Below, piece by piece: positions 38,775 through 59,804 of a stretch of DNA of 64,000 nt (its first letter is position 1; each line of letters opens with the position of its first letter). The notes under the pieces were generated by a model, which was not told the origin of the DNA, made no database searches, and saw only the letters and a list, made by a program, of their open reading frames with translations. Position numbers and translations under genes: made by a program. This stretch comes from an uncultured virus (IMG/VR IMGVR_UViG_3300042989_000017) (Duplodnaviria; Heunggongvirae; Uroviricota; Caudoviricetes). The DNA is taken from the IMG/VR virus record IMGVR_UViG_3300042989_000017; one strand, 5' to 3'.

Positions 38775-39047
38775 GGGGGTAAAAATAAAACTAGTATTTT
38801 TAGACAAAGTATGAGTTGTACAAAAAATGAGCGAAAAATAAAAAAAATAGGGTATTGACATTTCTCGTTTGTACATTTTTTGTACAGCAAAATCTTATAA
38901 AAAAGGTTAGGAAGCGGTACATTTTTTGTACAGAAAGTCGAGAAAATCGCTCAGTTTCTATACAGTTAATATACAAGTGTATAGAAACTATTGCTTAAAA
39001 AATAGGCACTTCACACTTTTGACAAAAATGCTAGTTTTATTTCACCC
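38775..39047. repeat. AT-rich element with imperfect terminal inverted repeats and internal repeats
   Basis: AAATAAAACTAGTATTTTT (38783-38801) / AAAAATGCTAGTTTTATTT (39024-39042); GTACATTTTTTGTACAG at 38871 and 38917. Confidence 0.7.
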
Positions 39048-39916
39048 TATTTTTTAGGTGGAAACTTGAGTGGGCAAATCTCTGACTATCTATAGCAAAT
39101 TTTTAATTGGTGGTTTTTCAGTTTTCGGATTGTTAAAATGCGGCGATTTAAGGCGTGTCTCAAGGGTTAGGGTATAGTCGGATACCTTTTTAGCTTTTAC
39201 TAGAGCTTAAACGCGATTTTGGAGCGTATAGGCTGCTTTTGCAGAGGTCATTTTAGGGCTGTTTGCCATTGGTGCGATACTGGTAACGGTATCGGGCTGT
39301 GGAAACGGGCTGTTTTTACGGTTTCGGACTGGGTCGAAGGGGGTTCTAAAGCTGTGTTAAGAAGACACCTGTCTAATATACAGCTTTCCAAAAGACTTTC
39401 ACTAATAAGAAAAAAGCCATATTTTAATTTCTTATATTTTTCTAAATTCTCTATTTTTTTCCCAATGACATCTTTTTTTTTTCTCACATATCAGGTAGGT
39501 GTTAAAAACACACAAAAATTTATTACTCGCTTTTACCGCTTAAAACAATTAACCCTACTGGCTATTTTGCCGCGTTACCCGTTACTACTTATGGCCAAAC
39601 TGTCTCACCTAAACGGCAACCGTTACCTGTCACCTTTACGGCTTGGGTTAAAGAGTTAGGAAAACGTAACCGTTACCCGTTACTAGCTACTGACAAAAAG
39701 TTTTGAAAAACTGCTAATTCGCGGTCTCAAAAATATTTTGAAGAGCCTGTGGTTCGCGGTCTTATCAGTAAACGGGTAACGTGTACCGATAACAGTAAAC
39801 GGTAAGACCGCCCCCATTACCCCGTCAAACGTCCTACGTTCACGTTTAAGCCGCGTTAAAACGTGAAGATATAGGTGAGTGCAGGTAACGTGCTGTTAAA
39901 ACGTAAACAAGCAAAA

Positions 39917-39951
39917 CAAAAAGCCTAACTAATTAAAGTATAGGCTTTTTG
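39917..39951. terminator. Bidirectional intrinsic terminator
   Basis: CAAAAAGCCTA/TAGGCTTTTTG with U-tracts on both strands. Confidence 0.65.
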
Positions 39952-40037
39952 TTGTTACCTTTACCATTAAACGCCTTAGAGCAGCGTTTAATGGTAAAGG
40001 TAAAAGAGTCACTTAGTAACTCTTTTACGGTCTTGAG

Positions 40038-40769
40038 TTACGCGGCCTTAACGGCGCGTAACTCAAGAATCAGTGAAAACTCAACAATGAGGGCTTGCAA
40101 GCCCTCATTGTTGAGGGTAGCGGCGGCGGCACGGATGACGCCTAAAGCGTCAAAGTCGGCGGCGACGTTTAGCGCGTCAAACGCGCTAAACAAAGGGAGG
40201 ACATCGTCCTCCCATTCTTGAGAGGCCGTTTTAACGGCCTCTTTTACCCCTTGTGAGGCCGTTAAAACGGCCTCACAGAAGGTGGCCAACGTGTCGCCAT
40301 CCGTAGACACGGACGGCGCGGGGATTGCATCAAGCCGCGCCTTGTGCGCGTCTTGTTCCATTTTGGCCGCGCTTTTAAGCGCGGCCTCCCTGCCTTGACC
40401 AATGAGGGCTTTTACACCCTCACTGGTTAAGCCACCAGTGAGGTGTTGGTACACCTCACTGGCCTCTAGGACCTTGCTTTTAGGGAGGGCTTGCACACCC
40501 TCCAGGGTCTCTATTGAGACCCCTTTTCCTGACTTAATCTCTTTGATTGCTACTGCAATCAAAGAGATTGAACGGCCTTGCACAAGGCCGTTTAATTGGA
40601 CGGCTGTCACGCCGTCCAACACGTTTTTTAGCTTGGCACTAAGTGCCAAGTCTAAAGAAAGGGGGTTATTTTTAACCCCCTTAGCAAAGGCTGTTAAAGC
40701 ACTGGCAGATTTGCCAGTGTTTGACGCATTGGCAAGAAACGCCAACACGCCTTGAGCGGTTAATTTCAT
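40038..40769 (-). CDS. 243-aa Ala/Leu-rich hypothetical protein whose coding sequence is tiled with hairpins
   Basis: AAGGAA RBS and AAAATG start as in the other early genes; about 20 inverted repeats inside the ORF. Confidence 0.7.
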   Translation of the reverse strand: MKLTAQGVLAFLANASNTGKSASALTAFAKGVKNNPLSLDLALSAKLKNVLDGVTAVQLNGLVQGRSISLIAVAIKEIKSGKGVSIETLEGVQALPKSKVLEASEVYQHLTGGLTSEGVKALIGQGREAALKSAAKMEQDAHKARLDAIPAPSVSTDGDTLATFCEAVLTASQGVKEAVKTASQEWEDDVLPLFSAFDALNVAADFDALGVIRAAAATLNNEGLQALIVEFSLILELRAVKAA

Positions 40770-40789
40770 TTTAACAATTCCTTAACAAA

Positions 40790-41555
40790 GTATTCGATAT
40801 TGAATACCTTAAAAAGCCTAACATAAGCCTTTTAAGGTATCACACTCACGTCTAACTATTAGCGTGAGTGTGAAAATACTTGGGACAAAGTGCTGATATT
40901 TTACCCGTCACTTTGTCTCTTAGCTAGTCAGCCCTTAAAGCCTTTCGCTTTAATAGCTATACTCTCACCTATCGTCAAATTATGACTGTACCGCGTGAGT
41001 TGCAGTGTATTACAGTGTGTGGAGGGGCTTGCCAAGCGACAATCACTAACTGCATATAACATCTAGTTTTTACTTGTCTTGTGTCAGTAATAGACACGAC
41101 TCACCCTAAGAACAGGGTTTTAGTAACGGCACTAAGAAAGCCGTTTTTCTTCTATCGTGTTCTGTTCTTAGTAGTTAGCTGCCTTCATTTTGTTACCCAA
41201 TGGTAGCAATCTGAGTAAATCAGATCCCGTAACGGGATCAACTGGCTATTGTCGCCGCTCTCACGAACGACATACTTTTGCACAAGATTGCCAAAACAAT
41301 CCACCACTAACAGCATGGTGTCGTGGTAATCATTTACTTCGTACATAGTCTTAGTCTCTTAGTAGTTAGTTTATCTATGCACTAAAACAATGCACAGATT
41401 GCTAACCACTAAGAACAGAACACGATAAACTGTTAAAGAACACGTTAGGCCATCAATAGTTGCCTAACTCTTTATACTGCTAAGTGTATGATATTATCAC
41501 ACACTTAGCAAGTATGCAATTGTAACTGTTTGTAAGTGTTACAATCGCATCCATA
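40790..41555 (-). ncRNA. Large structured leader/ncRNA candidate (~770 nt)
   Basis: More than 15 local hairpins plus a 27-bp long-range helix 41153-41179/41401-41427; no ORF; begins at the predicted sigma54 start. Confidence 0.55.
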
Positions 41556-41565
41556 CAGTACATAA

Positions 41566-41582
41566 TGCAGTTACCATGCCAA
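41566..41582 (-). promoter_or_regulatory. sigma54 (-24/-12) promoter
   Basis: TTGGCATGGTAACTGCA = GG-N10-GC. Confidence 0.7.
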
Positions 41583-41597
41583 GTATGCAATATATCG

Positions 41598-41610
41598 TAA
41601 GTCGTTGATT
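41598..41610 (-). promoter_or_regulatory. IHF binding site
   Basis: AATCAACGACTTA matches WATCAANNNNTTR, about -43 to -55 from the predicted start. Confidence 0.7.
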
Positions 41611-41654
41611 TATATGGGGTTTATTTTAAGGTGTTTTTCTTGACACTGTAAAGA

Positions 41655-41751
41655 CGTTACCTTGTAACGGTATATGTGTTACCTAGGTAACACAATGTGT
41701 TACCGAAGTGTTACCTAGGTAACACTTTTAAGAGTTGTAACATACGTTACA
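41655..41751. promoter_or_regulatory. Palindromic enhancer-like (UAS) sites
   Basis: TGTGTTACCTAGGTAACACA (41675-41694) and AAGTGTTACCTAGGTAACACTT (41706-41727), plus weaker GTTAC/GTAAC dyads. Confidence 0.6.
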
Positions 41752-41930
41752 CGTTATGTAATGAAGGCATACCGTTACACTGTGACAGTGTAGACTGACA
41801 AGGGGCATACCTTAATATAGGGCTAACAGCCACTATCTCGGGTGCTGTCCCAAAAGTACCCGTGTTAAAAAATTTCGATTTACAAGGTGCGATTCTCACA
41901 TAAATAGAAAAGGATTCGGCAACCGTATCT

Positions 41931-42002
41931 CGTTTACGGCAACAGAGTCCTTAGAGCTTTTACTTTTACTTTTACTTTTACGTTTACGGCAACAGAGTCC
42001 TT
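41931..42002. repeat. 22-bp direct repeat flanking (CTTTTA)4
   Basis: CGTTTACGGCAACAGAGTCCTT at 41931 and 41981. Confidence 0.85.
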
Positions 42003-42073
42003 CAAAACAAACCGTTTAGCTATCCAACCTAACCCCCCATCTCCAGAGCCCTTATTCCCTGCCCCCTCAAGCC

Positions 42074-43075: not shown

Positions 43076-43807
43076 TTACGGCTTTAAGAAGTCTTCTGGT
43101 GAGACTAAACCACCTACTTTTGGCTTATAACCGCCCCACTTTGAGGCGTAATGGCTTCCCTCAAGGCGCACAACTGCACAAAGTTCCGATATATCCCCGA
43201 AATTTATCGTCTCATATACCGTTTTAGCCCAAAATTTAAGCAAACTCAGCTCGTGAAGCCGTGTCATTTCCTCGGGTCTGACCAGTGTTTTAAGGTACTG
43301 GCCATGCAGGGGTAAGGTGTCTTCCTCATCCAAAACCATGATTAGCGGCCTTAAACGAGGCAACCGAGACAGTTCCCGTAGACTTTTACCCCCAAGTTTC
43401 AAACTTTTGGCTGAAACCAAGACTGGTAGGAGGTTCGTTTTCGTTAAAACAGACCGAAAATCGGTAAAACCCATCGCAAACGGCTCTCGTGTGTGGAAAA
43501 CAATCGGCTCTTCGTCCACGATAACGACTGGCGGCAAATCTCCCAGTTCCTCTAAGTAAGGTATCGGCAACAGAGGGCGAACTCGTCTATAGCACTCGAT
43601 GTCGAACTCGCGCCAGAGGTTTTCGTTGATGTTCTCCAGCATCATGTTACTGATTTGTAACAGAGAAGGCATCCCTGTAAGCCTTCTAAAACCCTGACTT
43701 GCGAAATTAGGGGTTAAAGGTACTACTGCATGGCCGAGGTTTAAACGGACTGAGCCTGTTTGGAAGTTAATTTCCACGCCACTCCCTAAATGCTCTTGGG
43801 TTCTCAT
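43076..43807 (-). CDS. Hypothetical protein
   Basis: 243-aa ORF, ATGA-coupled to the primase gene. Confidence 0.65.
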   Translation of the reverse strand: MRTQEHLGSGVEINFQTGSVRLNLGHAVVPLTPNFASQGFRRLTGMPSLLQISNMMLENINENLWREFDIECYRRVRPLLPIPYLEELGDLPPVVIVDEEPIVFHTREPFAMGFTDFRSVLTKTNLLPVLVSAKSLKLGGKSLRELSRLPRLRPLIMVLDEEDTLPLHGQYLKTLVRPEEMTRLHELSLLKFWAKTVYETINFGDISELCAVVRLEGSHYASKWGGYKPKVGGLVSPEDFLKP

Positions 43808-46248
43808 ACACTACCCCCTTTCTTAACAGGCAACCCTACCCCGTGGTAAACAGCCGCACCCGTAGCTTCATTCATTTCAATCTCAAACCCCATGCTTAGG
43901 CTGAGTTCTCTCATGCGTAGGCGGAACTCGCCAATGTTCATCATCTTGACTGAGCCGTGGGTTAATGCCCAAGACCAGAAAATCTCGTAGACTCTCTTCT
44001 CAGGGATTTGCGCGTTAGGTGTGAACGACAGCTCGTTTGAGTTCTTAACAAAAGCTCTTACGATATTGTTAATACACGCCATCTCCTCCATAATCTTGGT
44101 GTGCGACCTTGGTAAAGTATAGCCTTGCTGCGCTAACACTCTTGGCATAGCTTGGATCGCCCACGCTGTAATCATCTCGCGTTCCTGTAAAATAATTTTT
44201 CCTGCGATGTCGAGTTCGATTTTAGAGTCGGGAACGGGTCTGTTGAAGGTTAAAATTAACCAACGGCGGTTAAAGCCCTCGCTTGAGTCCTTCGTCTTTG
44301 GCAGCGGGTTAGAGCCAAACCAGTGTGTAGCTGTGATTTGCGCTCGAAACGGATCGCCATAAGGTTTACGGCAGGTGATCTCAGACCCGTCCATAATCTC
44401 TTTAAACTTCTGGCCGTCAATTCGCTTCTCCTCAGACAACTCCCCCGCGATGTTCAGCAGCTTGCCTACCATGTGGGCGGGCGAGTAGGGGTCTCCCCAA
44501 GCGTTCGGGCTTACCGCAGACCTTGCCTCATCGCTGACTAGCGCACTCGCAATACTGAGCAACTGGCTTTTACCTGACTTGGCCACGCCTTGCAGTAAGA
44601 TAACCTTCTGGAACTTGCTTCCCCAACCAAATAATGTCACCAAGAGAGCTTCCTGTAAGGCTTGAACCTTCTCCATAAAGTCTGAATCACCGCCCCAGCA
44701 CGTCTCTAAAAAGTCGGAGAACAGCGGCGCATCGTGGTGAAGATTAACCCCCCCTGCTGAAGCGATATAGCGAAACGGTAGCGTGTACATCATCCCGTAC
44801 TCAGGTTTGTGGGGCAGCAATTCCAGTTTGTCAGTTAGGAAACCGTTGACGAAGTTCACACCTTGCAGGTGAGATTTTTTTATCTCTTGAGGGCTTAAAC
44901 TTTGCATCAATTCCAATATGCCTTTCAAGTCACCGTTGCGCCTTGCCGCGTCGTAAGTCCCGTAGTTTTGGCTGATGTGGCGAATAAGCCAAGCATCCCT
45001 GATGGTCTCCCAATGGCTGCCGTTGAACTTCCAGAAATCCCCTTTATCGAAAGCGAAATCGAAAAGCACCTCCATGTCCTGTAACACTGCTTCGGCAATC
45101 TCTGAATGGTTTGCGCCAGCCATGCCGTCTTCTTTTCTCGTCTCATTTATCTGTTTATTGAGGGTGCCAATCTTGACCCCCAGCCCGCTCTCCTTAACAA
45201 TCAAGCTTAGAATTCTATCTACTTCCATACGATTTAAATTTTTGGAGTGAGCCATCTTGCGTAGAATCTTATCTGTGGCTTCCATACTTATGGTTGTACC
45301 TAACCCCTCATCTTGGGTGAAAACCTCCTTTAAAAAATCAACAATCTCAATGCACCGCCACTCTTCGGTATCTCGGTCAAAGTTAATGTTCAGGTTTTTC
45401 TTTTCTTCGTCGGATAGTCCTGTGTCCCAGCCTTCAGGCAGGATTTTCTTCTTTTCCATTACATCACGAGTCAGGAAACGAATCAGGTTACGCTTATGTT
45501 TCTCAATATCCATTGAATCGCCAACGACGTTTTGGATAAACTCATTTGCGTAAGACTGTAGCATTCCTAACGCTTCCAGCAGCGTTCTCTCACCACGCAT
45601 TACCGCCATAGCAAACAGTCCCGCCTTCTCCGTCAGGTTTGTATCACGACTTCCCGAGCTAACATACTCCGTCAACTTTGAATGGCCACTGCGGGACAGA
45701 ACGATACCGTAATTGCTTATTACCGCCCTGAGTTTTTCCTCAATGTCGGGTTGGAGTTTCGGCAAGGAATCGACAACCGTGAACAGGTCGCAGTTTGCCG
45801 TGTACGGTAGTTTCGTCTCAGGGTGGATGGAAGCAGGTAAAACAACCTGCGTTTTCTCAGACAGCAGTTCGCAAATTGTCTCACCAGTCGCCGCTTTAAT
45901 GCGGAAAGTTTTCTGCCCACTGTAAGCGTAAGCGAGAACCTTACCCTTCTTACCGTAGCGTATCCACGGTGATTTCGGCAAAGCTTCTTCAATCAGCCGA
46001 ATTAGGCTTTCATCAGTCGTGTCGATGTCGAGGGCGATAACCCGCGACTGTTTGCCAAGAGGTAAGCCGATGTTACCGTTCGGGTATTGCTTCAGCCAGT
46101 TTGTTCGCGTTTGTTCGTCAGGCATTGAATCGTGAAAATTCTGCCAGCCTAGCGGCACTGGCACCTTCGCCATAGAACGGAGAGGGATAACAGGCATACC
46201 TGCTTTCCAGTAGTTCGGAGCGGTATCAGCAAAGATATTTTTGGACAT
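43804..46248 (-). CDS. Primase-polymerase fused to a D5/P4-type SF3 helicase
   Basis: VIPL....K.P...W, GNIG...LDID, LPASIHP; G.AKSGKS, GEL, D.S.GF.RR. Confidence 0.92.
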   Translation of the reverse strand: MSKNIFADTAPNYWKAGMPVIPLRSMAKVPVPLGWQNFHDSMPDEQTRTNWLKQYPNGNIGLPLGKQSRVIALDIDTTDESLIRLIEEALPKSPWIRYGKKGKVLAYAYSGQKTFRIKAATGETICELLSEKTQVVLPASIHPETKLPYTANCDLFTVVDSLPKLQPDIEEKLRAVISNYGIVLSRSGHSKLTEYVSSGSRDTNLTEKAGLFAMAVMRGERTLLEALGMLQSYANEFIQNVVGDSMDIEKHKRNLIRFLTRDVMEKKKILPEGWDTGLSDEEKKNLNINFDRDTEEWRCIEIVDFLKEVFTQDEGLGTTISMEATDKILRKMAHSKNLNRMEVDRILSLIVKESGLGVKIGTLNKQINETRKEDGMAGANHSEIAEAVLQDMEVLFDFAFDKGDFWKFNGSHWETIRDAWLIRHISQNYGTYDAARRNGDLKGILELMQSLSPQEIKKSHLQGVNFVNGFLTDKLELLPHKPEYGMMYTLPFRYIASAGGVNLHHDAPLFSDFLETCWGGDSDFMEKVQALQEALLVTLFGWGSKFQKVILLQGVAKSGKSQLLSIASALVSDEARSAVSPNAWGDPYSPAHMVGKLLNIAGELSEEKRIDGQKFKEIMDGSEITCRKPYGDPFRAQITATHWFGSNPLPKTKDSSEGFNRRWLILTFNRPVPDSKIELDIAGKIILQEREMITAWAIQAMPRVLAQQGYTLPRSHTKIMEEMACINNIVRAFVKNSNELSFTPNAQIPEKRVYEIFWSWALTHGSVKMMNIGEFRLRMRELSLSMGFEIEMNEATGAAVYHGVGLPVKKGGSV

Positions 46249-46292: not shown

Positions 46293-46829
46293 CTAGATCG
46301 CGCCGTAAATTTCTTCGTAATCCGCCACTACTTTGCGTAGGGTTTCTTCAATGTTGTCAGGCAAAGGTTTTAAGCTTGCCTCATAAAGTGGGTAGTTTTC
46401 AACGTAAGGTTGCAAGCTCGTCGGGTGTAAGCTTGGAGCTAGAGCAAGCTGTCTGCGGTTTGAGATCAACTCGCACACCACCTTGCCTGCCTTGCTTTTG
46501 ATGAGGAAAGGGGCTGTGTGGTTAAACTTGAATGCCAACGCTTTACCTTTGTGGCCACAGCGTATCCACGAGGTTGTGCCTTCTAAAGCTGTTTGGATGA
46601 AAGCTGAAAGGTCACAGTTAACGTCGATGTCCAAAACCTCGATGCCTGATACCTCACCAAGTAACAGGCCAATGTTACCGTCAGCGTAATCGGTTAGCAG
46701 TTGCGGGTCTTGAGAAGGCGTTTGCCAGTTAGTAACAGCGGGAATTTTACTTGCTTTGTTTAGTGGGATTACAGGTAAGCCAGCGTTCCAGTAAGCAGGG
46801 GCTGTATTTGCAAAAATGTTGTTTATCAT
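46293..46829 (-). CDS. Stand-alone Prim-Pol domain, paralog of the primase N-terminus
   Basis: NIFANTAPAYWNAGLPVIPL vs NIFADTAPNYWKAGMPVIPL; GNIG, LDID, PSLHP. Confidence 0.8.
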   Translation of the reverse strand: MINNIFANTAPAYWNAGLPVIPLNKASKIPAVTNWQTPSQDPQLLTDYADGNIGLLLGEVSGIEVLDIDVNCDLSAFIQTALEGTTSWIRCGHKGKALAFKFNHTAPFLIKSKAGKVVCELISNRRQLALAPSLHPTSLQPYVENYPLYEASLKPLPDNIEETLRKVVADYEEIYGAI

Positions 46830-47599: not shown

Positions 47600-49297
47600 A
47601 TGTCCTCAAATTTGTTTGCCTTAGACCTTAAAAACGAAATAAATTCTCGTTTCTCAGTCGATTCTGCGTCGATGAGTTATTCTGACTGGATTTGTAAAAA
47701 CACGACTCTAAAGGCGGCACCTTTTAACTTCAAGCGTTTTCCCTTTCAGAAGGCGATTGTTGATGACTTACACCCTAACCTGCACGTTATAAAAATTTCA
47801 CAGGTGGGGGCAAGCGAGGTTCAATTCCGCAAAGCGGCTGCCTTCTGTGCGCGTAATCGTGGCGTAACAGTGCTTATTACTTTCCCCAACGAACCGATGA
47901 TGAAGAAAAACTCGCAAACGCGGATTATGCCTATCATCGAAACCGATAAGGTGTTTAACCTAGGCGGCGGCAAACCTATCCGCTCCGTGGATATTCAGCA
48001 AATCGGTAACTCTTACCTTATGGTAGTACCTGCAACCGAAGGTAGTGCAACTTCAACCCCTGCTGACTTTGTGATGGTTGACGAAGTTGATCTATCAAAT
48101 CAGCAAATGGTTGGCTTGCTCGGTTCGCGTATGCAAGCATCCAACTTCCGTATTATGCAGCAATTCAGTACACCGACCTTCGAGAACTTCGGCATCCATC
48201 AGGGGTACTCGACAACAGACAGCCGTGAATACTTTATTAAGTGTAGTTGTTGTAACCACTGGCAGTTACCTTTGTTTACAAAGGACTTCGTTCATATCGA
48301 CGGCTTGCCTGATGAGATTAAGCTGACAGATATTGATACCTCGATCATCGACCGTTATGAGTTGAAGTTAAACAACGTCGCCGTGACTTGTAGTGAATGT
48401 TTCGCACCCTTAGACTTGATTGGCGGCAAACGTGAGTGGGTTGCCGAGTTCCCTCACCGTGAACACGCTCGCGGCTACCGTGTTCGTCCCTTCACCGTCT
48501 CCACCCTCTCTCCCGCTTATATTATTAGCGAGCTTATCAAGTACCGAGACCGAGACTTCCTCCGTGGTTGGTATAACACGGTACTGGGTGAAACCTTTGA
48601 GGAGTCGGCAAGCCGTTTAACCGAGAGCGAACTTAACCCGTGTTTCCATGTGGGTGAGGTACCAATCGGTGTGGACTATTTCATCGGCATTGACGTGGGT
48701 TCCATCTGCCATATCACCGTTGGCTTGTCGGCGGCGGGTTTGAAGTCAGGGCTTGATGTCGTCGAGTTCTTAACTGTGGCAGGTGAAGACTTACTGGAGC
48801 GAGTTAAAGTTTTAGATGAGAAGTACCACTTCAGGCAAGGTGGCGTGGATTTATTCCCCGAGCAAACCCTAGCTAAAAACTTATTTGACATGTCAAACGG
48901 TCGGATTATCCCTGTTAACTACACGGGAAGTATTGAGATTGCTGATAAGGTTGAGACGCGCAAGACCTTGCAAGTGGATAGAACAACCCACCTTGATACG
49001 TTGGCTAACCTCGTTCGCGGAAGTCTACTTTCGCTTTATAACTTCGGGCAGCAAAAAGAGGTTATTAAAGCTCACCTACGCGACATGGTTCGTGAGAAGA
49101 ATGGTGAGAAAACACCTATTTGGCGTAAGCTAACTGGCCATGACCATTACTTCCACAGCCTTGCCTATCTTTCGACTTCCGTTAAATTTTACCGTGGAGA
49201 GTTTACGGGGTACAAGGATGAGTCTGCGTTGACTGTTTTAGCTTACGGTTCGATTAACTTAGGTGGTCAAAGTAAAGCGAGCCTGTGGGGTTATTAA
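47600..49297 (+). CDS. terL: Terminase large subunit (GpA-like)
   Basis: PFQ, K.SQVG.SE, DEVD, STPT, CxxC zinc motifs, GIDVG, HDHYFH nuclease domain. Confidence 0.9.
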   Translation: MSSNLFALDLKNEINSRFSVDSASMSYSDWICKNTTLKAAPFNFKRFPFQKAIVDDLHPNLHVIKISQVGASEVQFRKAAAFCARNRGVTVLITFPNEPMMKKNSQTRIMPIIETDKVFNLGGGKPIRSVDIQQIGNSYLMVVPATEGSATSTPADFVMVDEVDLSNQQMVGLLGSRMQASNFRIMQQFSTPTFENFGIHQGYSTTDSREYFIKCSCCNHWQLPLFTKDFVHIDGLPDEIKLTDIDTSIIDRYELKLNNVAVTCSECFAPLDLIGGKREWVAEFPHREHARGYRVRPFTVSTLSPAYIISELIKYRDRDFLRGWYNTVLGETFEESASRLTESELNPCFHVGEVPIGVDYFIGIDVGSICHITVGLSAAGLKSGLDVVEFLTVAGEDLLERVKVLDEKYHFRQGGVDLFPEQTLAKNLFDMSNGRIIPVNYTGSIEIADKVETRKTLQVDRTTHLDTLANLVRGSLLSLYNFGQQKEVIKAHLRDMVREKNGEKTPIWRKLTGHDHYFHSLAYLSTSVKFYRGEFTGYKDESALTVLAYGSINLGGQSKASLWGY

Positions 49298-49360
49298 CTG
49301 GGCGTTTGCTCTGCTATACTTCCACCTAACTAACAAATTTTGTACAAGAGGCTTAACCTC

Positions 49361-50833
49361 ATGGCGACTACTAGCTTAACCAGTAAATTGGGTCAGATTC
49401 TCTTACCTAAAAAGACTCCAAACCCACAAGGGGTGGCTAATTCGCCTACCTACCAAAGTAACAACCCTCAGAATGTGTTGACTGTTCCCACATACACGGA
49501 TCACCGAACCGACATCTTCGCCAGTCGTGCTGCTGATGATGCCAACGCGCTGCTCCAAAGCCTACTGGTTCAGGACCCCGACGTGTCTGCGGCCTTGAAC
49601 GCTTATCTTACTGTCGCCGATACCGAACCTGTTATGTACGTCAAGGACATAAACGATAAAATTGACCGAAACGGTCAGAAGGTGTTGAACGCGATTCTTG
49701 ATACACTGACGACTCGTTACGATTACAACACCGTTGGCTTCCAATATAAGCCCACGTTACGAGCGATGGCTGAGGAGTTGCGGTATATGTTGCTCCTGCG
49801 CGGCATGATGGTCGCCGAAGCGATTGTCAGTAAAGAGGGTATCTTCGACGCTATTCGGCTGATTGACCCAATTAGTTTAAAGTGGTTCGAGAAAACAAAC
49901 GGACGACTGACTCCAGAACAGACCCCCACAGGCGGCGGCAACAACATATCACTCGACGTGCCTTCCGTCTTCGTTTCCTATTTTAGGCAAGATCCAACAC
50001 GTGCTTATTCCAACTCACCATTCGTAGCTTCCATCAATACAGTCGCCGCTCGCCAAAGAATTATTAACGACCTATACCGTATAATGACCCTGACAGGATA
50101 CCCACGGCTCGACATCACGGTACTTGAAGAAGTTATCATAAAAAATGCACCGCTTGACACCAAAGGCGACCCTGCAAAATTGACGCAATACATCAACAAC
50201 ACCATCACCTCGATCACCAGTACGGTTTCAGGTTTACGCGCCGATCAAGCCTTCGTTCACACTGATAGTATTAAGGCGGATATGGTTAATACCAAGTCAG
50301 CAGGCATGACTTTGAATATTGAGCCAATTATCAAAACACTCAATGCACAAAACCAAGCAGCCTTACGGGTCATGGCTACTACTTTAGGTAGAGGGGAGAG
50401 CGGAGTTAATACTGCAAGTGTAGAGGCTTTATTGTTTGCGAAGAATGCCGAGGCACTAAATTTACCTATAGCAGAGCTTTGGGAGCAAATTTTCACTTTC
50501 ATTTTAAGACTAACTGGCTCTACGTCCAGAGTCGTTGTGAAGTTCAGGCCAGTTGAGCTTCGCCCCACTACTGAGCTATGGGCACAAAAGGTGTTGCAAC
50601 AATCCTTCTTGCAAAAAGAGTTGAGCTTAGGTTCAATAGATGATGACGACTATCATTTAGAGCTATTTGGTCACATACGCCCTGACTCCGCCCCTATTTT
50701 AAGTGGAACTGGTTTTAACGGGGGCGGGAGTGTAGTTAACGCTGGAGGTATTAGCCCTAACACCGACTCCACTGGTAGGTCGGTATCCTCTGCGGCTGAT
50801 AAGACCGCGAAAAGTAATGCGGTTAAAAAGTAA
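49361..50833 (+). CDS. Portal protein
   Basis: About 490 aa directly after terL; D.DVS.A, G.PR.D. Confidence 0.75.
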   Translation: MATTSLTSKLGQILLPKKTPNPQGVANSPTYQSNNPQNVLTVPTYTDHRTDIFASRAADDANALLQSLLVQDPDVSAALNAYLTVADTEPVMYVKDINDKIDRNGQKVLNAILDTLTTRYDYNTVGFQYKPTLRAMAEELRYMLLLRGMMVAEAIVSKEGIFDAIRLIDPISLKWFEKTNGRLTPEQTPTGGGNNISLDVPSVFVSYFRQDPTRAYSNSPFVASINTVAARQRIINDLYRIMTLTGYPRLDITVLEEVIIKNAPLDTKGDPAKLTQYINNTITSITSTVSGLRADQAFVHTDSIKADMVNTKSAGMTLNIEPIIKTLNAQNQAALRVMATTLGRGESGVNTASVEALLFAKNAEALNLPIAELWEQIFTFILRLTGSTSRVVVKFRPVELRPTTELWAQKVLQQSFLQKELSLGSIDDDDYHLELFGHIRPDSAPILSGTGFNGGGSVVNAGGISPNTDSTGRSVSSAADKTAKSNAVKK

Positions 50834-51473: not shown

Positions 51474-51494
51474 CTCTCATTGTTAAGCTACACG

Positions 51495-51596
51495 ATAACT
51501 GACTAAACTCTGCTCACCAAGCCATCATTGTAGTAGCTGAGAAGTAGCAGGATTTATGGGGAACCCTTCCCAGCTCACAGAGTTTAGTCAGTTATC
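51495..51596 (-). ncRNA. Stem-closed ncRNA candidate B
   Basis: Perfect 19-bp GATAACTGACTAAACTCTG/CAGAGTTTAGTCAGTTATC. Confidence 0.5.
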
Positions 51597-51604
51597 AAGT
51601 AAAG

Positions 51605-59670: not shown

Positions 59671-59752
59671 ACAGAAAAGCCGTATTATCATAAGCTAGGC
59701 AGTGGAGGGTTAAGTGTGGAACCCAACTAGCAAGATAAAACGGCTTTTCTGT
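59671..59752 (-). ncRNA. C4/CI-like antisense RNA or attenuator hairpin, copy 2
   Basis: ACAGAAAAGCCGT/ACGGCTTTTCTGT, GCTAG/CTAGC, GGGTT/AACCC; unpaired ACACTTA and CCACTGC complement upstream TAAGTGT and GTAGTGG. Confidence 0.7.
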
Positions 59753-59804
59753 ACACTTAAAATACCCAATGTCTCGCCACTACGCTACCCATCAGATGTT
59801 TATA

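Follow-up and report, generated by a model that had tools for sequence, protein, structure and literature searches.

A hairpin-rich putative leader with a small gene nested in its long-range stem in an uncultured tailed phage

Layout of the locus

The window analysed here is a stretch of 64,000 nucleotides (nt) from an uncultured tailed phage, and the metagenomes that match it carry freshwater sample labels. Within the window, positions 40790-41555 had been described in an earlier note as an ORF-free, highly structured leader or non-coding RNA (ncRNA). These 766 nt are part of 1.3 kb without long open reading frames (ORFs; 40770-42073), flanked on one side by two minus-strand genes of no assigned function, which follow the primase gene, and on the other by a 243-codon minus-strand ORF (40038-40769) that we call the hairpin gene. 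The stretch follows a promoter element conserved in relatives, contains one protein-coding gene and precedes another, carries G-U pairs in its strong stems on the minus strand alone, and is absent from the relatives. We give an even chance to the reading of a minus-strand messenger RNA (mRNA) that carries two genes, with the stretch as its long front part, specific to this lineage, and with hairpins that act in cis on the message; message stability and processing would most likely be their roles. Taken globally, the earlier observation is partly confirmed and its interpretation partly supported.

Thirteen related loci (L001-L013) served as the comparison set for the leader. The closest relative is L002, whose primase is 79% identical to that of the window and whose record (68.5 kb) is 84% complete; the primases of L006 and L008 are 50% identical to the window's. 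Natural variants come from the contigs of a sequencing run, X3. The features are given below in the predicted direction of transcription, with proteins measured in amino acids (aa).

41676-41725, no strand: two identical 18-bp palindromes (41676-41693 and 41708-41725), exact and found nowhere else in the window
41598-41614, minus: A/T-rich, IHF-like block between the palindromes and the promoter, kept in L002, L006 and L008
41566-41581, minus: sigma-54-type -24/-12 promoter, matched nowhere else in the window and present in 3 of 100 shuffles
41514-41550, minus: H1, a 13-bp stem with an 11-nt loop, 3-5 nt past the predicted 5' end
41477-41511, minus: H2, a 15-16-bp stem with a 3-nt loop (-21.0 kcal/mol on minus, -16.7 on plus)
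41444-41468, minus: H3, a 7-bp stem with an 11-nt loop
41401-41427, minus: arm R, the 5' arm of the 27-bp long-range helix
41373-41399, minus: small minus-only hairpin with two G-U pairs (-10.3 kcal/mol on minus, -1.6 on plus)
41357-41369, minus: repeat copy of the 13 inner nt of arm L, in direct orientation, overlapping a Shine-Dalgarno-like AAGAG (41356-41360)
41185-41346, minus: small gene, 53 aa (P0003)
41153-41179, minus: arm L, the 3' arm of the 27-bp helix
40926-41152, minus: variable spacer of weak structure (local z 0 to -3.1) with short stems at 41121-41146, 41103-41120 and 41080-41098
40789-40920, minus: 3' hairpin module, made of 40884-40917, 40840-40873, 40804-40840 and 40789-40806 (-55.5 kcal/mol, z -8.2)
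40038-40769, minus: hairpin gene, 243 aa (P0001), an orphan but coding
39915-39953, minus: terminator-like hairpin with a U run, kept in L002 (and in L004, on the same contig)

The promoter element has the -24 GG and the -12 GC at fixed spacing and is kept in L002, L006 and L008. Its position (41581-41566) places the predicted start of transcription near 41555, and the edge of the structured region does fall there, as had been claimed, with the first stem beginning 3-5 nt downstream. An IMG/VR search with the promoter pattern returned the contig of L002 as its sole match. The A/T-rich block fits what we take to be the IHF consensus, a pattern that matches five times in the window, counting both strands. 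The two palindromes, about 100-160 bp upstream of the promoter, are by their sequence and position candidate activator (enhancer) sites. Equivalent paired palindromes occupy the same place in L002, and L006 has two there of different sequence. A set of this enhancer type lies downstream of the primase block in four contigs (window 41566-41725, L002 7504-7665, L006 9580-9751, L008 9702-9741), with activator-site palindromes that differ between lineages. The protein domain scan, which covered 52 of the window's ORFs and not all of them, gave no sigma-54 activator domain, and a limited literature search turned up no example of a natural phage sigma-54 promoter.

On the minus strand, no sigma-70-like site was found inside 40790-41555, and there is no terminator between the leader and the hairpin gene. 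The terminator-like hairpin at 39915-39953, which has only a weak 30-nt match in L009 (E value 0.78), is probably the 3' end of the transcript. The simplest reading of this arrangement would be that the small gene and the hairpin gene share a single minus-strand mRNA of about 1.65 kb. One further contig, from run X9 (labelled metatranscriptomic and flagged 'probably DNA'), spans 40478-40727 inside the hairpin gene; we draw no conclusion from it. Contigs of runs X5 and X6 leave parts of the stretch uncovered, and this too carries no weight here.

Structure, coding content and conservation of the stretch

Folding of the 786 nt from 40770 to 41555 gave -292.8 kcal/mol on the minus strand, against a mean of -196.2 for 20 shuffles (z -12.9), and -251.5 on the plus strand, against a mean of -175.2 for 20 shuffles (z -10.6). 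The minus-strand fold lies 41 kcal/mol below the plus, and base composition explains about 21 of these. Local structure was scored in 150-nt windows, for which the genome background has a mean z of -0.46 and a standard deviation of 1.26, with 5 of 452 windows below -4. On this scale the 'continuous hairpins' reported earlier were an overstatement: only two segments are exceptional, 41326-41625 at z -5.6 to -6.9 and 40726-40950 at z -5.8 to -6.8, while the ~370 nt between them (40951-41325, z 0 to -3.1) are ordinary for this genome. All six hairpins that had been named are present (40804-40840, 40840-40873, 40884-40917, 41223-41239, 41444-41468 and 41478-41510). The strongest local structure is found within the hairpin gene and just downstream of it (z -6 to -20), and the whole region is part of a 3.5-kb hot spot of perfect palindromes that takes in coding DNA. 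Perfect stems of at least 9 bp have 53 of their 73 entries in 38-42 kb, 38 of them in 40-41 kb, in a count where a single palindrome may yield several entries.

Two structured modules frame the stretch. The 5' hairpin module (41373-41550) has a z of -6.5, and the 3' module sits immediately upstream of the ribosome-binding site of the hairpin gene (AAGGA, 40779-40783), with no listed difference in the main X3 contig. Between them, the arms of the long-range helix (41153-41179 and 41401-41427) pair at 26 of 27 positions; the helix is single in the window, and two copies occurred in 0 of 100 shuffles. In the fold of the unit bracketed by the arms (z -8.8), the predicted helix has 29 bp and appears in the centroid as well. 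Judged by the duplex criterion for RNase III, a near-perfect RNA duplex of ~20 bp or more, the predicted helix is long and regular enough. Folding also predicts an earlier state: in the nascent RNA, arm R is able to pair with the repeat copy at 41357-41369, over the AAGAG, and in the full-length fold the long helix takes the place of this pairing.

Contrary to the earlier description, the stretch is not free of ORFs, since a conserved 53-aa minus-strand gene (41185-41346) sits inside the helix. Two homologues of its product, P0003, were found in databases at E values of about 1e-13, and four more are encoded in the metagenomic or viral loci L009-L012; the six homologues show 47-70% identity over the full length and 21 invariant residues. 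The sense frame is open in five of five DNA copies, and the other frames contain stops except for one antisense frame in the copy of the window. In the comparisons of the window with L009 and L010, third codon positions differ 18-22 times and second positions 4 times, and synonymous codon changes outnumber non-synonymous ones in both (17 versus 10 for L009, 16 versus 9 for L010). The homologues, the open sense frame and the excess of third-position and synonymous changes together establish a real protein-coding gene, and the pattern of substitutions indicates that it is under purifying selection. The gene fills 162 of the 766 nt, about a fifth of the stretch. Thus, of the '~220-nt multi-stem domain' proposed within the helix, the helix stands, but what it encloses is mostly the coding sequence of the small gene. 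No match to P0003 was found in Pfam, PHROGs, PADLOC or NCBIfam, nor a usable one in Atlas, and its AlphaFold model is weak (predicted local distance difference test score of 63, four short strands).

The distribution of the small gene is patchy, and its neighbours differ between phages. In L009 its place is downstream of the hairpin gene's counterpart, after a repeat block whose homologue in the window (~39610-39690) has no small gene behind it; in L010 it is found among other small genes, behind a sigma-70-like promoter of its own; and it is absent from the incomplete record of L002. In the window it has neither a promoter nor a terminator of its own. The copies in L009-L012 and a partial match in L013 have no flanking inverted repeat. 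Natural variation adds a form without the gene: a lower-depth 270-nt contig of X3 joins 41179 to 41358, so that the gene and its ribosome-binding site are gone and both arms are kept. The missing segment lies between the direct copies of the 13-nt word, at 41166-41178 and 41357-41369. Either this accessory gene was inserted into a leader hairpin's loop, or the gene-less form arose by deletion from it.

Outside the small gene, the leader has no match in the loci L001-L013. The leader of L002 is about 150 nt long and that of L006 about 87 nt; similarity between the window and L002 stops right after the -12 element, and the leader of L006 is likewise without similarity past that point; the small gene is in neither of these leaders. 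In L002 we counted 4 hairpins in 12.9 kb, with no hot spot, which argues that the feature is young. No Rfam family is found in 40790-41555, even at E values up to 1, and a scan of the whole window at gathering scores reported one transfer RNA (tRNA). The lack of an Rfam match, together with relatives that lack the leader, points to a lineage-specific composite leader and not to a conserved ncRNA. The stretch is therefore a member of no known class, in line with the earlier remark that it could not be assigned to one, and with no conserved counterpart there is no evidence for a new conserved class either.

Several candidates were considered and rejected. A retron, a group I intron, a tRNA-like element and a transfer-messenger RNA were set aside, as no reverse transcriptase was found and the region gave no Rfam match and no ARAGORN call. 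Rfam hits resembling Phe/Thr leaders at 39914-40025 are below threshold and correspond to terminator-like hairpins. Two minus-strand ORFs in the spacer, of 44 aa (40928-41062) and 40 aa (40975-41097), have no relative in the loci and no convincing ribosome-binding site; by hand reading of X3, the first is without its stop and the second has a new one.

The hairpin gene is an orphan. No homologue was found for P0001 in 5,601 scored candidates from 5.8 billion protein clusters, nor a match in IMG/VR, and the gene at the same position in L002 shows marginal similarity (E value 0.006). Comparison of the window with X3 nevertheless reveals the marks of a coding sequence: 11 synonymous against 7 non-synonymous codon changes, 11 of 17 differences at third codon positions in 40573-40700 (p 0.008), and five small indels that sum to zero. 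With the hairpin gene coding, the stretch upstream is a leader plus an intercistronic region in the ordinary sense. The gene is built largely of perfect palindromes; one of 18 nt reads as the six residues EGLQAL on either strand, and variants of it occur again. In a 20-bp inverted repeat, X3 has TT changed to AA at one arm and AA to TT at the other (40231-40232 and 40264-40265); with these paired changes the arms stay complementary, and Leu and Lys swap between two repeated peptides. Downstream of the gene lies a second stretch without a convincing ORF (38877-40037, ~1.16 kb), A/T-rich with GC down to 31%, which carries repeats common to L009 and L002 and a second GTTAC cluster.

Action of the hairpins in RNA or in DNA

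On the minus strand, the strong stems of the leader contain seven interior G-U pairs, of which six belong to local hairpins and the seventh to the long helix. The plus strand, where each of them is an A-C, has none. The minus-strand bias reported earlier is thus upheld for the strong stems, and G-U pairs confined to one strand in such stems favour hairpins that act in RNA. Together with the position between promoter and gene, this asymmetry supports the part of the earlier interpretation that called the stretch a regulatory leader; the part that called it a large ncRNA is not supported, given its coding content, its lack of conservation and the empty Rfam search. One of the G-U pairs, 41518/41546 in H1, becomes an A-U pair in X3 through a change at 41546, the sole change in a strong leader stem. 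Stems farther downstream tell of structure kept through divergence: the 5' part of the hairpin gene has 22 differences in 158 nt in X3 (14%), and all four hairpins persist. By hand reading, two G-C pairs there become minus-strand G-U pairs, and one stem has matched changes in both arms. The X3 segment folds at -74.3 kcal/mol, against -59.7 +/- 5.2 when the differences are placed at random, and 3 of 300 random sets were as good.

Mechanistically, we infer from the sequence a series of steps, from transcription of the region through stability, processing and translation of the message, as follows. Transcription would start at the host sigma-54-type promoter, at ~41555, pass the small accessory gene and then the hairpin gene, and end near 39915. 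The three to four stems at the extreme 5' end would shield the message from decay that depends on the 5' end; stabilisers of the 5'-terminal kind begin near the 5' end of the RNA. The stems between the genes could form barriers to (3') exonucleases, possibly to Rho, and would keep the 415-nt untranslated gap structured. The duplex of 27-29 bp, which is long enough by the length requirement of RNase III, is a candidate site for this enzyme, and cutting there would separate or trim the segment with the small gene. In turn, the alternative 15-bp pairing in the nascent RNA would cover the ribosome-binding site of the small gene until the distal arm is transcribed, and could in this way delay its translation.

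Several observations weigh against action in RNA. Seven G-U pairs to none is a small count (two-sided p about 0.016), and the opposite kind of mismatch is seen too, in weak stems and at loop edges. The X3 differences listed for the leader fall mostly (10 of 12) at 40928-41059, among weak predicted pairs, and are not compensatory. Relatives with short leaders imply that the phage group in general can do without any of the leader's hairpins. Further points suggest that the palindromes might act, or have arisen, in DNA, either as sites for a dimeric phage regulator or a replication protein beside a candidate origin, or as mutational by-products of template switching in quasi-palindromes. Both strands fold far better than their shuffles, which makes DNA-level palindromes possible, and in the permutation test on the 158-nt segment the plus strand was preserved too, with 0 of 300 random sets as good. 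The palindromes of the hairpin gene are mostly perfect Watson-Crick stems and have no strand bias (three G-U pairs on minus, four on plus). The hot spot extends over coding DNA; it lies downstream of the primase gene and beside iteron-like repeats (41931-41952 and 41981-42002), and its absence from L002 makes it recent. A palindrome similar in sequence to H1 recurs in an A/T-rich island of the distant relatives L007 and L008. Around H1 the motif GTTAC reaches 13 per 500 nt against a mean of 1.4, with clusters at 41500-42000 and 39500-40000, and this density and the recurrence of H1 favour a DNA site bound by a protein.

Even so, we regard action or origin in DNA as unlikely, though deserving of real weight. 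Template switching predicts perfect Watson-Crick arms without G-U pairs, whereas the strong leader stems have theirs on the transcribed strand alone, and the hairpin at 41373-41399 is stable on the minus strand only. The hairpins are unlike each other in sequence, which sets them apart from the repeated, operator-type palindrome of L006 and L008. In addition, the hairpins in the 5' part of the hairpin gene survive their divergence partly through changes from G-C to minus-strand G-U.

The preferred reading, hairpins that act in cis on the front of a message, has a bolder extension that we consider rather doubtful. Here the whole transcript, from about 41555 to 39915, would be under selection as a chain of RNA hairpins that takes in leader, spacer, coding sequence and 3' end, an 'armoured' message, with the accessory gene in the loop of a stem and its translation gated by the alternative pairing. 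If this were true, structure would have been kept through 14% divergence together with the protein, and structure this pervasive could protect against the ribonucleases of the host or against RNA-guided defences. Since L002, the closest relative, lacks the structure, the adaptation would be specific to this lineage.

An undescribed class of discrete cis-regulatory RNA or ncRNA, comprising the whole stretch or only its 5' module, is improbable; examples would be a processive antitermination element, a protein-titrating RNA or a transcript that primes an origin. Strong, strand-biased structure does start at the predicted 5' end, long untranslated stretches separate the promoter from the hairpin gene, and the region adjoins the candidate origin repeats; transcripts that prime or activate origins are known from other replicons, as with ColE1 RNA II and the lactococcal phage c2. 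Against this, Rfam has no match in the region, the 13 loci hold no homologous sequence outside the small gene, and relatives with the same promoter do without the stretch. Moreover, a fifth of it codes for protein, no terminator precedes the hairpin gene, and its middle part is free to vary between strains.

Finally, a 27-bp inverted repeat that forms a mobile or switchable DNA unit, either a miniature transposable cassette that brought the small gene or an invertible segment, is very improbable: near-perfect terminal inverted repeats do surround the gene, which sits at other positions in L009 and L010, is missing from the L002 record and is lost exactly (41180-41357) from one lower-depth X3 contig, but that gene-less form retains both arms, which are therefore not the ends of a mobile unit, the outer flanks differ and show no target-site duplication, the arm has no other copy in the window or, by pattern search, in IMG/VR, the four homologous genes and the partial match of L013 have no such repeat, the ORFs scanned contain no transposase or recombinase domain, and contigs of four runs, compared over the leader arms, hold the reference orientation alone, with the proviso that contigs drop rare forms.

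Known systems and the surrounding genome

By analogy, the stretch would work most like the stems through which polycistronic messages of bacteria and phages are processed and stabilised. RNase III stems include the stalks formed by sequences that flank 16S and 23S rRNA, and the intercistronic sites in the early mRNA of phage T7. As in these, the two flanks of a functional unit inside a longer transcript would come together in a near-perfect duplex (27-29 bp, over two helical turns), and the setting is, as for the T7 sites, an early or replication region of a phage. Unlike the rRNA stalks, the leader helix, a candidate RNase III site, brackets a protein gene of 53 codons; the T7 sites differ in being local hairpins between genes and not stems that bracket one. 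The helix is also absent from all homologous copies of the gene that it brackets.

Message stabilisers are of two kinds, 5'-terminal stem-loops as in the ompA leader and intercistronic elements of the repetitive extragenic palindromic type as in malE-malF. The window resembles both, with strong stems that begin 3-5 nt past the predicted 5' end and with several stems in succession between two cistrons, but its stems are far more numerous and longer, and they share no common sequence family. The promoter in turn resembles the enhancer-dependent sigma-54 promoters with upstream activator and IHF sites, of the glnAp2, nifH and Pu type: GG and GC stand at canonical spacing, two palindromes lie 100-160 bp upstream with an IHF-like block between, and the arrangement is kept in relatives. 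It differs from them in belonging to a phage, and in having no activator gene among the ORFs scanned. The small gene, for its part, is like the 'morons' and other accessory small genes of phages in its patchy distribution, varying neighbours and natural gene-less form; unlike morons, in the window it is without its own promoter and terminator, and its place is a leader hairpin loop, where two tandem-type copies of a 12-13-nt repeat flank it.

The leader is unusual in its size, in the gene nested in its stem and in the polymorphism of that gene's presence. The locus is a well-documented case of a phage message predicted to start at a conserved host sigma-54-type promoter. In one lineage the leader would have lengthened from about 100 nt to almost 800 nt, and a small accessory gene has come to lie within a 27-bp stem; some natural strains carry it and others do not. 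This makes the locus a natural test bed for RNA structure, processing and gene insertion in phage operons. It also calls for caution, as 'ORF-free' regions may hide conserved genes of ~50 codons. A large new class of phage ncRNA would have been important; the evidence does not support one here.

The genome around the locus is that of a tailed phage. The terminase and portal protein are encoded on the plus strand (47600-50833), and a primase-polymerase with a D5-type helicase on the minus strand (43804-46248); other genes encode an SNF2 helicase and SbcC- and SbcD-like nucleases. Phage GenBank records gave no DNA match and no protein match for P0002. Scans of genome collections with an alignment of the primase and one of the small gene found no relative. 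Directly upstream of the full-length primase gene, an ORF of 178 aa (46293-46829) repeats the N-terminal domain of the primase-polymerase. ARAGORN calls a 93-nt tRNA on the minus strand at 59702-59794; its anticodon, TTA, would pair with the stop codon TAA. This tRNA is missing from the Rfam results at the gathering score, and the standard code gives open frames for the long structural genes. A further long inverted repeat (24 nt, 92% complementary, arms 65 nt apart) is intergenic, near the tRNA-Trp gene, at 51489-51601.

Closer to the promoter, the exact 22-nt direct repeats at 41931-41952 and 41981-42002 are iteron-like, have four copies of a 6-nt unit between them and lie next to a 7-nt sequence, repeated three times, at the 3' end of the gene upstream. 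A related repeat occurs in three copies at the corresponding site of L002, and the array is a candidate replication origin or binding array. In L006 (10662-14477) and L008 (10707-13685), at least eight copies of one 22-nt palindrome stand between small ORFs; this palindrome is operator- or terminator-like and lies within 5 kb behind the sigma-54 promoter, unlike the hairpins of the window, which are all different.

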